From assembly GCA_963737065.1 (NCBI GenBank), contig CAVTRC010000001.1, positions 416,001 through 480,000 on the forward strand: 64,000 nucleotides of DNA, given 5' to 3'. Position 1 is the stretch's first letter. Every line of letters begins with the position of its first letter. The notes below the pieces were generated by a model. It had not been told where the DNA came from and ran no database searches. It saw only the letters and a list, made by a program, of their open reading frames with translations. The position numbers and the translations under genes are program-made. This DNA comes from Candidatus Eremiobacteria bacterium. GTDB lineage: Bacteria > Vulcanimicrobiota > Vulcanimicrobiia > Vulcanimicrobiales > Vulcanimicrobiaceae. Below are positions 21,669 through 25,764 of the stretch, piece by piece.

Positions 21669-22142
21669 ATGATGACGCTACGCCCCGCTTTGATCGCACT
21701 CGCCGCAGCGGCTGTTCCGTTGCTTGCTTTCGCGCAGACGAGCCTGCCGCAGTCGACGCAAGATCGTCAGCAAATTCAAAACTTGCAGTTTCAGGCGAAT
21801 CTGCCGGGAACGAGTGCGGCGGAGCGCACGCAAATCGAGCGTCAGATCAGCCAATTGCAGTACCAAATCAACACGCGCGCGCCGGTGCAGCCGATGCCCA
21901 CGCTGACGCCGTCGTGGAACGGCGGACCGCTATTCAGCGGCGGAAATCTTCCGCAGCTGACCGCGAACCCAACCTTCGCGCCGCTCTCGCCGACGATTTA
22001 CGGCTCGTGCGATTCCGACCGCGCGGTCATCTCGTATTTGACGCAACAGATTTCGCTGCCGACGACGACCCGGCAGGAACGTCTCTACGATCAAAGCCAG
22101 AGCGCGGAACTCCAAAAAGATTTGCGCGCGAAGGGTTGCTAG
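21669..22142 (+). CDS. Secreted Gln-rich hypothetical protein
   Basis: Signal peptide ending in AFA; internal helical repeat. Confidence 0.7.
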   Translation: MMTLRPALIALAAAAVPLLAFAQTSLPQSTQDRQQIQNLQFQANLPGTSAAERTQIERQISQLQYQINTRAPVQPMPTLTPSWNGGPLFSGGNLPQLTANPTFAPLSPTIYGSCDSDRAVISYLTQQISLPTTTRQERLYDQSQSAELQKDLRAKGC

Positions 22143-22144
22143 TC

Positions 22145-22173
22145 TTGACGCCGCCAAACGCTCGTGATAGCCT
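22145..22173 (+). promoter_or_regulatory. Sigma70-type promoter for the leader peptide/met operon
   Basis: TTGACG-N17-TAGCCT with extended TGn; ATG 7 nt downstream. Confidence 0.75.
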
Positions 22174-22180
22174 TTGCGCA

Positions 22181-22264
22181 ATGTTTACTGACGTCGCGAT
22201 GATGTGCCCGATGTGCTGCATGCAAATGCGCGCGGCGCGGGCCGTCGTGGAGCGAACCGTGTAG
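22181..22264 (+). CDS. Met/Cys-rich leader peptide MFTDVAMMCPMCCMQMRAARAVVERTV
   Basis: 8 of codons 7-16 are Met or Cys; lies directly upstream of methionine biosynthesis genes. Confidence 0.8.
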   Translation: MFTDVAMMCPMCCMQMRAARAVVERTV

Positions 22265-22284
22265 TACGCGGGATCGAATCGCAA

Positions 22285-22325
22285 ACGACGCCCCTCGCCG
22301 CAATGGCGAGGGGCGTCGTCGTTTC
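22285..22325 (+). terminator. Attenuator terminator hairpin
   Basis: ACGACGCCCCTCGCC-gcaat-GGCGAGGGGCGTCGT followed by a pyrimidine-rich tract (weak U-run). Confidence 0.75.
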
Positions 22326-22362
22326 ACTCCTCGCTTTCCCGTCTCAAAAGGAGGCATGAGGA

Positions 22363-24813
22363 ATGGTATCCACCGCGGGCATCGCGTTGCTCGGCTGCGG
22401 TACGGTCGGTGCATGCGTCGCCGAGCGTTTACTCTACGAGCGCGATGTGATCGAACGCCGCAGCGGCGTGCACTATGAACTGCGCGCAATTGCAATCCGC
22501 GACGCGACGAGAACACGGATCGAGTCGATCGACACGCGACTCTTCACGACCGATCCGCGTGCAATCGTCGAAGATTCACGCGTCGATATCGTGATCGAGT
22601 GTATCGGCGGCACGGCACAGGCGTGTGAACTCATCGAGATCGCGCTGGAACGCGGCCGGTCCGTCGTGACGGCGAACAAGGATGTGCTCGCGACGCAGGG
22701 TCCACGCCTGCAGGCTCTCGCAGCGGCGCGCGGTGCGGGTCTGCGTTACGAAGCCGCGGCGTGCGGCGCGATTCCCGTCGTACGCATGCTTTATGACGCG
22801 CTCGCAGGCGATCGTATCGACGCGCTTGCCGGCGTCGTGAACGGGACGTGCAACGCAATTCTCTCGGAGATGGACGCCGGCTCGGAATTCGCTGAAGCCG
22901 TCGCCGCGGCGCAAGCGCGTGGCTATGCCGAAGCGGACCCATCGAACGATATCGACGGCGTGGACGCCGCGCACAAGCTCGCGGTATTGATGCAGCTCGC
23001 GTTCGGTCTGGCGGTCATCTCGCCGCGCATTCGCCACACCGGGATCGCCGGCGTAACAAAACGCGAAATCGCGCGCGCGCAAGCGCTCGGCTATCGTATT
23101 CGCTTGATTGCCGCAGCAGCACGCTGCGACGACGGCGCGTTCGCCGGCGTCGCGCCGTTGCTCGTCCCGCGCGATCACCCGTTCGCAACGCTCAGCGGAC
23201 CGGAAAATATCGTCCGCGTCGCCGCCCGCGATGCCGGTCCGCTCACTATGCGCGGGCGCGGTGCCGGCGGACCGGCAACCGCGTCGGCGATCCTCGGCGA
23301 CGTCGTTTCGTCGCTGCGCGCGCTCGGCGAGCGTCGCGACGTTGCACGTCAGCTGCGTGCGCTTGAACCGGCGCTCGACGTTGCCCCGATCTTCACCGGT
23401 CTTCCGCGTCATCCGGAACTCCCACGCTACGCGTTGTGGGATGACACACTACTTGATGCTCCCGTCTCGCACGCTCAAGCGTGCGTTGTTATGACGGGGA
23501 AAGGAACACGGCACTCAATGAGCATTACGCTCGAAACGGACCACCCGCAATCGTTCGATACCGTCGCGGTGCACGGCGGTCACAACGGCGATCCGGCGAC
23601 GAAATCGCGCGCCGTTCCGATCTATCAAACGACCTCCTATCTGTTCGATTCAACGGAACACGCGGGCAAGCTCTTCGCACTGGAAGAGTTCGGCAACATC
23701 TATACGCGCATCAACAATCCGACCACCGACGTATTCGAACAACGCGTTGCGGCGCTCGAACGCGGTGCGGGTGCGCTCGCGGTCTCCAGCGGACAAGCCG
23801 CCGTCGTGTATTCGATCCTCAATCTCGCGAAGAACGGCGACCATCTCGTCAGCAGCGCATCCCTGTACGGCGGAACCTATAACGCGTTCACGCACACGCT
23901 CAAACGCTTCGGCATCGAGGTCAGCCTCGTCGACTTCAACGATCCCCATAGCGTCGAAGCGGCAATTCGTCCGAATACGAAAGCGCTCTTCGCGGAAACG
24001 ATCGGCAACCCGAAGATCGACGTGCTCGATGTGGAACTCTATGCCGAACTCGCGCACCGCCATGGTCTTCCGCTGATCGTCGACAACACGCTCGCAACAC
24101 CATACCTGTTGCGTCCGATCGAACACGGCGCCGATATCGTCGTACATTCGGCGACGAAATTCATCGGCGGGCACGGTACCGCGATCGGCGGCGTAATCGT
24201 CGACGGCGGGACGTTCGACTGGACCATCAATCCGCGCTTCGCCGAGTTCATCGAGCCCGATCCGTCGTACCACGGATTGCAATACGCCGCCGCGTTCGGT
24301 AATATCGCCTACATCGTCAAAGCGCGCGTTCAACTCCTGCGCAACATCGGCGCCGCGCTCTCTCCGTTCAACGCATGGCTTCTCTTGCAAGGCATCGAAA
24401 CGCTCGGTCTGCGCGTAGAACGTCACAGCAGTAACGCGCTCGCCGTCGCCGAGTTCCTCTCGCAGCACCCTCGAGTGACAAGCGTCGCATATCCGGGTTT
24501 GCCGGGTGATCCCGCACACGAACGCGCGCGTAAATATCTGCCGAACGGCGCCGGAGCCATCGTGACGTTTAGCGTTGAGGGCGGCGAGCGTGAAGCAAAA
24601 AGCGTCATCGATCGCCTCAGGCTCTTCTCTCTACTCGCAAACGTCGGTGATGCAAAGTCGCTCGTCATTCACCCTGCGAGCACGACGCATCAGCAACTGA
24701 GCGACGCCGAACGCCTGCAGAGCGGCGTCGACGCATCGACGGTCCGGCTCTCGGTCGGCATCGAGGACATCAACGATATCATCGCCGACTTGCGTCAAGC
24801 GCTGGCGGACTAA
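22363..24813 (+). CDS. hom: Homoserine dehydrogenase, continuing in frame into MetY
   Basis: [30 protein letters not shown]; no stop before the MetY domain; GGAGG RBS. Confidence 0.85.
23518..24813 (+). CDS. metY: O-acetylhomoserine aminocarboxypropyltransferase (sulfhydrylase)
   Basis: [32 protein letters not shown]; own GAAAGGA RBS before ATG 23518. Confidence 0.9.
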
Positions 24814-24816
24814 CCG

Positions 24817-25764
24817 TTGCGCGAGCTGACGATCGGCATCGGATCGCTTCGGCTGCACGATGGCACGCTGCTGCACGACGTGCAGCAGCGTGTGACGATG
24901 TATGGCTCTCCATCTGCCGCTCGCGACAACATCGTGCTCGTCAATCACGCACTGACCGGTTCGAGCCGGGCGGCGGAGTGGTGGCCCGGCATCGTCGGCG
25001 AAGGTGCGCTCTTCGACCCGTCCGGCTGGTGTATCATCGGCATCAACGTACTCGGCAGTTGCTACGGCTCGACGTGGACGCCGCGCGTCACCGTTGCAGA
25101 CATCGTGTGCGCGCAAGCGCGCGTTCTCGATGAACTCGGGATCGAGTCGGCCGCCTTTGCCGTCGGTGGATCGCTCGGCGGCATGCAGGCACTGCAATGG
25201 GCGCTCGATTTTCCCGGCCGCATCAAAAACGCGATCGTCATCGGCGCGCACGACCATCACAGTGCAATGGGAATCGCGCTCAACGCGATTCAACGTGAAT
25301 GTCTTCAACTCGATCCGGTTCGCGGTTTACGTACGGCCCGCAAACTCGCAATGCTGACCTATAAATCCGAGGAACTCTTGAACGCCCGCCACGGCCGTAA
25401 CCCGGATCGCAACGATCGGTCGCGTTTCGACGTCGAAGGGTACCTGGATTTGCAAGCGGCGCGCTTCATCGGACGGATGGACGCCCGCACCTACACTACA
25501 TTGACGCACGCCATGGATTCATTCGACGTCCGCAGACGATCGCTCCATGGACCGCGCGTCACGTTCGTCGGAATCAGTTCCGACTGGCTGTTCCGCCCGC
25601 ACGACGTGCGTGCAGCGGCCGAAAAATTCGGTGCTGACTATATCGAGCTAGAGACGGACCACGGGCACGATGCGTTTCTCGCCGAATCGGGCCGCCTCGC
25701 CGAGCTCCTCCGGCCGGCGATTCATATTCGCAAAAGCGCCGGAACGAGCGTTATCGCGCCGTAA
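24817..25764 (+). CDS. metX: Homoserine O-acetyltransferase
   Basis: HALTG, NVLGSCYGS, GGSLGGMQ, SDWLF, GHDAFL. Confidence 0.92.
   Translation: MRELTIGIGSLRLHDGTLLHDVQQRVTMYGSPSAARDNIVLVNHALTGSSRAAEWWPGIVGEGALFDPSGWCIIGINVLGSCYGSTWTPRVTVADIVCAQARVLDELGIESAAFAVGGSLGGMQALQWALDFPGRIKNAIVIGAHDHHSAMGIALNAIQRECLQLDPVRGLRTARKLAMLTYKSEELLNARHGRNPDRNDRSRFDVEGYLDLQAARFIGRMDARTYTTLTHAMDSFDVRRRSLHGPRVTFVGISSDWLFRPHDVRAAAEKFGADYIELETDHGHDAFLAESGRLAELLRPAIHIRKSAGTSVIAP

Follow-up and report, generated by a model that had tools for sequence, protein, structure and literature searches.

Anatomy of the hom-metY-metX leader

In the genome of a Candidatus Eremiobacteria bacterium, within a contiguous stretch of 64,000 nt that we analyzed as a whole (the window), the methionine biosynthesis operon hom-metY-metX is preceded at positions 22145-22362 by a leader that holds a promoter, a short open reading frame (sORF) crowded with methionine (Met) and cysteine (Cys) codons, a series of alternative hairpins and a paired Shine-Dalgarno (SD) sequence (Table 1). 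Judged by the sequence comparisons below, this leader is a real, conserved cis-regulatory element of the operon. We think it probable that it works as a ribosome-mediated leader-peptide transcription attenuator, with the charging level of elongator tRNA-Met as its input, joined in this genus by that of tRNA-Cys.

The codon content of the sORF is singular within its genome. Five Met codons (7, 8, 11, 14 and 16) and three Cys codons (9, 12 and 13) fall within codons 7-16, and among the 26,829 short ATG-initiated open reading frames (ORFs; 10-60 amino acids) of the whole 3.08-Mb genome this is the sole case of eight Met/Cys residues in a 10-codon window; the runners-up, three ORFs, reach six. The Cys codons form no run beyond a single CC pair, the three of them lying among the five Met codons.

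The RNA encoding this block and the sequence that follows can fold in competing ways. The first arm of the terminator hairpin is the exact reverse complement of the second across a 5-nt loop (-34.5 kcal/mol). Within the sORF, another hairpin (1:2, -32.6 kcal/mol) joins the regulatory codons to 22228-22248. Segment 2 is complementary to segment 3 at 15 of 17 positions, an antiterminator whose 2:3 region folds at -40.0 kcal/mol. Because these helices share strands, 1:2, 2:3 and 3:4 are mutually exclusive. The whole 185-nt leader folds at -93 kcal/mol (z = -5.5), a value that none of 200 shuffled sequences equaled. Beyond the terminator, the conserved anti-SD sequence pairs with the SD of hom (5:6, -12.5 kcal/mol in the window) and can alternatively pair with the terminator 3' arm (4:5, -12.8 kcal/mol). 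Upstream, 17 nt separate the -35 and -10 hexamers, and 7 nt separate TAGCCT from the ATG at 22181.

Table 1. Elements of the hom-metY-metX leader and its downstream genes, in window coordinates
Feature	Position	Strand	Remarks
-35 hexamer, TTGACG	22145-22150	+	TTGAC invariant in the 12-genome alignment A1
Extended -10, TGaTAGCCT	22165-22173	+	Hexamer TAGCCT 22168-22173; TG 22165-22166
Leader ORF, 27 codons and stop, MFTDVAMMCPMCCMQMRAARAVVERTV	22181-22264	+	Leaderless by predicted geometry
Regulatory codon block, codons 7-16 (MMCPMCCMQM)	22199-22228	+	22199-22223 doubles as segment 1
Segment 1, regulatory codons	22199-22223	+	Pairs with segment 2
Segment 2	22232-22248	+	3' strand of the 1:2 hairpin (22228-22248); 5' strand of the antiterminator
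Segment 3	22285-22301	+	Terminator 5' arm (22285-22299); 3' strand of the antiterminator
Segment 4, terminator 3' arm	22305-22319	+	Perfect 15-bp stem
Weak U-tract, CGTTTCACT	22320-22328	+	4 T in 9 nt
Segment 5, conserved CTCCTCGCTTTCCCGTC, anti-SD	22327-22343	+	May also pair with segment 4
Segment 6, SD AGGAGG of hom	22349-22354	+	Pairs with segment 5
hom-metY, homoserine dehydrogenase fused in frame to O-acetylhomoserine sulfhydrylase, 816 aa	22363-24813	+	Pfam PF03447, PF00742, PF01053
metX, homoserine O-acetyltransferase	24817-25764	+	NCBIfam NF001209, TIGR01392; Pfam alpha/beta hydrolase fold

Conservation and covariation among relatives

Relatives were sampled in two independent ways, through the Hom-MetY protein and through the conserved 24-nt anti-SD/SD motif. 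The first route yielded 20 hom upstream regions. In 11 of them, as in the window, hom is preceded at an equal distance by a Met/Cys-rich sORF; in one more (G002) the contig ends within the sORF, and eight have none (G015, G016, G020 and G023 of the same family, three sister-family genomes, and the second hom copy of G009). The second route found 99 stretches in a species-level genome collection, of which we analyzed 80, and in 71 of these, as in the window, a promoter, an ATG, a 20-29-codon sORF and a terminator hairpin are present together. The nine remaining motif loci comprise two contig-end cuts, three (L054, L073, L104) with a sORF and a -10 element that failed our regular expression, one broken sORF (L113), two without an attenuator (L094, L115) and a chance match in a Thiobacillus bin (L121). 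The 71 loci and the window make up the 72-locus set used below, which contains 70 distinct sequences for alignment and codon counts. Downstream of these 72 leaders lie 65 hom genes and five other genes, one gene being cut at a contig end and one (L128) left unclassified with only six residues available; classes were assigned by eye from N-termini, and the five non-hom assignments were confirmed by NCBIfam.

All of this falls within a narrow taxonomic range. The genome of the window belongs to the family Baltobacteraceae of Candidatus Eremiobacterota (Vulcanimicrobiota), to which the matching public contigs are also assigned, several of them as Candidatus Cybelea. In a 401-genome sample of the phylum, an exact-pattern search, which misses diverged copies, found the motif in 90 genomes of a single family (one flagged unpublished): 89 of 296 Baltobacteraceae genomes against none of 104 genomes in 20 other families, and 21 of 116 genera. 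The reversed pattern, searched as a control, had no match in the same sample. Three metagenome-assembled genomes labelled Babeliales, Acidoferrum and Acidiferrales (L062, L070, L080) contain Eremiobacterota-type leaders and hom genes that differ little from their counterparts in Baltobacteraceae bins; the contigs concerned are probably mis-binned. No Met-rich sORF was found upstream of hom in L043, L044, L045 and L047-L049. These hom genes without a sORF (in G016, G023, G020 and G026-G028) share another conserved stretch, TTGTCGCTCACTCA(A/C)CCAGC(G/A)CAC..., whose translation (…VLLTQPAHW…) would lengthen Hom at its N-terminus; the promoter and 5' untranslated region before it are different as well.

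The sORF bears the marks of a coding sequence across the family. It is intact in all 72 loci and stops after 20-29 codons. In the 70-sequence alignment the gaps of the 5' half come in multiples of three, and of the internal ATG triplets in the 70 distinct sORFs, 285 are in frame against 42 and 9 in the other two frames. Met accounts for 17.6% and Cys for 7.1% of sORF residues, compared with 1.7% and 0.9% in four proteins of the window. Start codon excluded, each sORF holds between two and seven Met (median 4), and Cys ranges from none, in five of the 70, to four (median 1). On these counts Met is the primary, constant signal across the family and Cys the variable one. Apart from the Met/Cys block and an Ala-Ala pair encoded by GCGGCG, peptide sequence varies from clade to clade; it is the codons, rather than the peptide, that seem to matter. 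In the largest clade the stop codon of the sORF falls within segment 2 (GTCGTGAAGC pairs with GCTTCAC), which is the classical arrangement.

The promoter is equally constant in its geometry. The T, G, T, A and final T of the extended -10 element are invariant in alignment A1, and a TGn extension is present in 71 of the 72 loci, even though our search did not demand it. The spacer between the -35 and -10 elements, which the search expression permitted to vary from 16 to 19 nt, is 17 nt in 56 loci and 18 nt in the other 16. The leader starts with ATG in every locus, and in 65 of 72 this ATG lies 7 nt after the -10 hexamer. From this fixed distance, the transcript is predicted to start at the ATG or one base before it, with no space for a SD sequence, and the leader ORF would hence be leaderless.

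Terminator, 1:2 hairpin and antiterminator are each backed by compensatory changes. In the 70-sequence alignment, 13 of 15 terminator pairs show compensatory changes, with 81-95% of cells paired, and the 1:2 helices are 81-82% paired, again with compensatory changes. For the antiterminator, 79.5% of cells pair in the 12-genome alignment and 35-58% in slid controls, and four of nine outer pairs show compensatory changes (GC to UA, CG to UA, UA to CG). For example, CGTCGT/ACGACG has become CGTCATG/CATGACG in two genomes of the same genus and TTTGC/GCAAA in another clade. Across the 70 sequences it is 70% paired (33-56% in slid controls), and 10 of 19 pairs are compensatory; the 50 compensatory cells compare with 26.3 +/- 4.6 in shuffles that retain the relatedness of the sequences, none of 500 of which reached 50. 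Native duplexes of segments 2 and 3 average -24.0 kcal/mol, compared with about -20 when the two segments come from different clades and -16.3 when segment 2 is shuffled. When the Met/Cys block was masked as if by a stalled ribosome and the transcript was ended before the 3' arm of the terminator, the 5' arm paired upstream in all 72 loci, over 6-17 nt.

The sequence beyond the terminator is conserved in another manner. The stretch CCTCGCTTTCCC(A/G)TC, which pairs with the SD of hom, is invariant; CGCTTTCCC is identical in 70 of 70 sequences, where it was part of the search pattern, and also in A1, which was gathered independently by way of hom. Two loci have kept this part alone. In L115 the promoter is joined straight to the CCTCGCTTTCCC anti-SD motif, sORF and terminator having been deleted and the anti-SD/SD hairpin kept; in L094 hom lies behind the 3' end of another gene, with the motif retained before its SD and the attenuator absent. 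By their sequences, these two loci look like natural 'constitutive' deletion controls. The retention of the SD hairpin in L115 shows that the hairpin does not need the attenuator.

A small number of leaders stand before other genes of sulfur metabolism. In L084 the same scaffold precedes cysH with a sORF of four Cys and two Met (MSSLLGTMCRCCRNCSTGGPANSAMT); in L054, L058, L104 and L108 it precedes genes for SsuA-family binding proteins, with an MCC motif in three and a lone Met-Cys pair in L054; and in L069 (five Met, no Cys) and L125 (three Met, one Cys) it precedes genes resembling cystathionine gamma-synthase/lyase. The sORFs are thus Cys-weighted before cysH and before one ssuA-like gene (L108), and Met-weighted before the cystathionine-synthase-like genes. 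Small as the numbers are, codon content in these sequences follows the downstream pathway, in line with what sensing of amino acids would predict. The scaffold occurs twice in each of two genomes (L056 with L069, and L087 with L124). In the window's own genome we found the hom leader only, with no second leaderless sORF of the same promoter style and no further copy of the anti-SD motif.

The promoter and ATG, the 27-codon ORF with its Met and Cys complement, the 15-bp stem, the complementarity of segments 2 and 3 and the poor U-tract had all been proposed in a preliminary description of this stretch, and every element it listed is present where it had been placed. What it overlooked were the 1:2 hairpin inside the sORF and the pairing of the SD sequence. 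Its suggestion that relatives be searched for a conserved Met/Cys-rich sORF and covarying stems was borne out by both sampling routes (11 of 20 hom upstream regions and 71 of 80 motif loci), with promoter geometry kept across loci and the antiterminator covarying in both the 12-genome and the 70-sequence sets. The 'dual Met+Cys' sensing that it envisaged fits the genus of the window; it does not define the family, in which Met is universal and five of 70 sORFs lack Cys.

The genes on either side complete the locus. The hom-metY product matches NCBIfam models for homoserine dehydrogenase and for homocysteine synthase/O-acetylhomoserine sulfhydrylase, and the matches of the metX product to NF001209 and TIGR01392 (E about 1e-74) fall short of the curated cut-offs. 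In a genome of the same genus (G004, locus L003), hom stops at a TGA and metY begins 21 nt further on behind its own GGAAAGGA ribosome-binding site. A single TGA lies inside the hom-metY matches of G003 and G004, and G001, G002 and G005 have separate hom and metY matches. In the window the junction lies near 23480-23510, with the internal ribosome-binding site and the metY ATG retained. Given these remnants and the separate genes of relatives, the fusion would be either a recent loss of the stop codon or of the frame, or an assembly error. Directly upstream of the leader, a 157-amino-acid ORF on the + strand (21669-22142) ends with its stop codon 3 nt before the -35 hexamer; it matches no Pfam family at E up to 0.001.

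Proposed mechanism and alternative explanations

From this anatomy we infer a start of transcription, translation of the sORF, ribosome stalling, a degree of termination and a response to Met and Cys, which would combine as follows. Transcription would begin at or one base before the ATG at 22181, so that ribosomes would translate the 27-codon leader ORF from a leaderless mRNA. With Met and Cys in ample supply, the ribosome would pass codons 7-16 and cover segment 2 while RNA polymerase is making segments 3 and 4; with segment 2 covered, the 15-bp hairpin would form and transcription would halt, and in transcripts that read through, the conserved CCUCGCUUUCC would hold the SD in a helix. Under a shortage of Met-tRNA or Cys-tRNA, the ribosome would stall in the Met/Cys block, which is also segment 1, and would break the 1:2 hairpin. 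The freed segment 2 would then pair with segment 3, and the antiterminator would pre-empt the terminator, allowing the operon to be transcribed.

Several observations weigh against this mechanism or sit awkwardly with it. A shortened transcript that was left unmasked still forms 2:3 in 62 of 72 loci in equilibrium folds; since the antiterminator forms there without a ribosome, the choice between 1:2 and 2:3 would have to be kinetic. A ribosome halted at the last Met codons (14 and 16) would itself mask part of segment 2. The antiterminator register taken from the window fits other clades only in part, helix 2 being 53% paired in alignment A2, because the register differs between clades, and the covariation as a whole stems from few independent events, in some three to five clades of one family. 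A generic promoter scan made no call at 22145-22173, where eight of 12 consensus positions match. Moreover, a shortage of Met should lower the supply of formylmethionyl-tRNA, and with it initiation on a leaderless sORF, which in this design would favor termination. Cys is not a substrate of the direct-sulfhydrylation route through MetY, which makes the logic of the Cys codons puzzling. Finally, the U-tract of the window is poor, and a generic terminator scan of the window made no call on the 15-bp hairpin because only four of nine bases after the stem are T; 26 of the 72 loci have four T or fewer there.

The poor U-tract and the silent terminator scan would fit an explanation that we consider unlikely: that the leaderless Met/Cys sORF acts mainly on translation, through sequestration of the SD, or by way of Rho, the hairpin being a structural module rather than an efficient terminator. 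Where the ribosome stands in the sORF would then govern either the masking of the SD, in the manner of the mycobacterial poly-Cys sORFs, or the entry of Rho. Consistent with this, 65 of 72 loci have GGAGG paired throughout once the terminator hairpin has formed. The terminator 3' arm (GCGAGGGG), once freed, can pair with the CCTCGC of the anti-SD; this pairing spans at least 6 nt in 62 of 72 loci, and 89% of its cells are paired compared with 57-73% in slid controls. The mycobacterial precedent, so far as its published description was available to us, is also translational (10.1101/834739). However, at least five T directly follow the GC-rich stem of 10-19 bp in 46 of 72 loci, which is a standard intrinsic terminator; the 4:5 pairing is without covariation in the 70-sequence alignment (one compensatory cell, equaled by the shuffles); the SD is still paired over at least 4 nt in 25 of 72 loci in the antiterminated state; and L115 keeps its anti-SD/SD hairpin in a leader that has neither sORF nor terminator. 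Transcriptional and translational or Rho-dependent outputs are compatible, and both may operate together.

Much less probable, in our view, is that the RNA of the leader binds a metabolite or a protein, being for instance an unrecognized S-adenosylmethionine (SAM) or Met riboswitch or the target of an RNA-binding regulator, with an untranslated sORF whose ATG and TGY triplets are by-products of structure. Segments 1 and 2 are indeed strongly structured, AUG- and UGC-rich strands pairing with GCGGCG and GCAU, and CCTCGCTTTCCC is invariant without covariation, as a contact site for a protein or the ribosome might be. Against this stand the frame-specificity of the ATG triplets, an ORF kept intact in 72 loci with indels in multiples of three, an ATG fixed 7 nt after the extended -10 element, and a Met/Cys ratio that shifts with the function of the downstream gene. 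There is also no Rfam match (see below), and beyond the alternating hairpins neither a multi-helix junction nor a conserved unpaired pocket is evident. We give hardly any credence to the simplest alternative, a chance sORF followed by the terminator of the upstream gene (21669-22142). The hairpin does lie 143 nt past the upstream stop codon, and our scan found no other obvious terminator for that gene. The whole unit accompanies hom, cysH, ssuA-like and cystathionine gamma-synthase-like genes in 71 of 80 loci, in every case its promoter separates the upstream gene from the hairpin, its antiterminator covaries, and the sORF of the window tops all short ORFs of its genome in Met/Cys density; conservation effectively refutes this reading.

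As a tentative and rather doubtful extension, we can offer a six-segment 'domino' switch in which a stall flips 1:2/3:4/5:6 into 2:3/4:5, one sensor governing both transcription and translation, within a sulfur 'ribulon' recoded in its Met:Cys content. In the first state the terminator may be formed and the SD sequestered; in the second, the RNA may be antiterminated, with the anti-SD captured by the freed 3' arm and the SD open. SD-like repeats (GGCGAGGGG, GGAGG) alternate with anti-SD-like ones (CCCCTCGCC, CCTCGCTTTCC) through all six segments, an arrangement that would explain conservation of sequence in place of covariation. The 4:5 pairing suggests, by way of hypothesis, a relay that opens the ribosome-binding site upon antitermination.

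Relation to known regulators and significance

The usual RNA sensors of met genes are SAM riboswitches and T-boxes. To our knowledge, methionine is the textbook exception among amino acids, its synthesis being controlled through SAM (MetJ, SAM riboswitches), T-boxes and protein regulators and not through leader-peptide attenuation. The leader described here shares with SAM riboswitches and Met T-boxes its place in the 5' leader of met biosynthesis genes and a terminator/antiterminator output, which is common among them, and with T-boxes a proposed readout of Met-tRNA charging rather than SAM. Where those rely on a ligand pocket or on RNA that binds tRNA, its proposed sensor is a ribosome in the act of translation. 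The preliminary description had reckoned with a SAM or T-box match that might explain the structure; the leader (22050-22450), searched at E up to 10, matches no SAM class and no T-box, and the whole window is without any Rfam match at gathering thresholds. SAM-I (RF00162), SAM-IV (RF00634) and T-box (RF00230) models had no match in the whole genome, which is 95% complete, and matched in control genomes; the other SAM classes were searched in the window. Sub-threshold matches to 6C, 23S-methyl, sbcD and a Burkholderia sRNA were set aside as chance, driven by the GC hairpin.

In its plan the leader resembles the classical attenuators (trpL, hisL, thrL, leuL, pheL and ilvL of Proteobacteria; trp and ilvB/leu of Actinobacteria), with a short ORF enriched in regulatory codons upstream of a biosynthetic operon and overlapping segments that can form a 1:2 hairpin, a 2:3 antiterminator and a 3:4 hairpin, the putative terminator. 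It differs from them in the amino acid predicted to be sensed, methionine (with cysteine); in a sORF predicted to be leaderless rather than led by a SD; in regulatory codons that are interspersed and form no straight run; and in the extra anti-SD/SD hairpin after the terminator. No Rfam leader family matches it. In the full text of papers open without subscription, we found neither a described classical attenuator for methionine nor a description of such a leader peptide in Eremiobacterota. In the portions accessible to us, Seliverstov 2005 (PMC1262725) reports Cys leader peptides in Actinobacteria and 'no conserved RNA regulatory structures' for methionine operons. Methionine, cysteine and the word leaderless do not occur in PMC4833913.

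Two leaderless systems come closer. The mycobacterial polycysteine sORFs (Canestrari et al., bioRxiv 10.1101/834739) are, in the parts of that report available to us, leaderless first cistrons whose Cys tract pairs with the SD region, giving translational control without a terminator. The likenesses extend to the leaderless position and Cys codons as sensor (both predicted here), sulfur-metabolism genes downstream, several loci with a common logic (a 'ribulon') and sequestration of the SD in structure. By contrast, the partner of the Met/Cys block in the present leader is segment 2 of a proposed terminator/antiterminator switch, the SD has a conserved anti-SD of its own, and there is a terminator hairpin. 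Met codons dominate, with no more than a single CC pair in the window and no Cys at all in five of 70 sORFs; the phylum is also different, and there is no sequence relationship. In Streptomyces lividans, Droste et al. 2021 (PMC8079986) predicted from RNA-seq a leaderless 'metL' (MSTTSDRTPATEATTTPGARCMCRRMCAF) with a CMCRRMC motif upstream of metNIQ, which, in the passages that concern it, they read as a Met-dependent attenuator while stating that a typical Rho-independent terminator is missing. Compared by description only, the two share a leaderless short ORF, interleaved Cys and Met (CMCRRMC there, MCPMCCM here) and a methionine-related operon. Unlike metL, which is a single-species prediction for a transporter operon and whose passages contain no antiterminator or covariation analysis, the present leader precedes biosynthesis genes. 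The preliminary description did not recognize its dual attenuator as described before; this holds for a Met-sensing terminator/antiterminator switch, for which we found no precedent, and has to be qualified for leaderless Met/Cys sORFs, since metL had been predicted earlier, as far as those passages go. A terminator/antiterminator attenuator that senses Met appears to be undescribed. The kind of attenuator is known. New are the phylum, the amino acid predicted to be sensed, and the joining in one leader of a predicted leaderless sORF, a complete putative terminator/antiterminator and a paired SD.

If our reading is correct, stalling at AUG codons would be usable as a methionine sensor despite the need of initiation itself for Met-tRNA and despite the sORF being leaderless. 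The idea of a leaderless sensory sORF would extend from Actinobacteria to Eremiobacterota. On the more doubtful six-segment extension, the recoded scaffold before hom-metYX, cystathionine-synthase-like genes, cysH and ssuA would constitute a ribosome-read sulfur 'ribulon' in Baltobacteraceae, standing in for SAM riboswitches and T-boxes, and it would be the first well-founded methionine-sensing attenuator of the classical type. Met- and Cys-weighted versions on one RNA scaffold would offer a natural series for how codon content sets the specificity of an attenuator. Eremiobacterota are a widespread phylum of soil and peat, almost entirely uncultured, and in their genomes the leader would serve as a ready regulatory marker for genes of sulfur-amino-acid metabolism.

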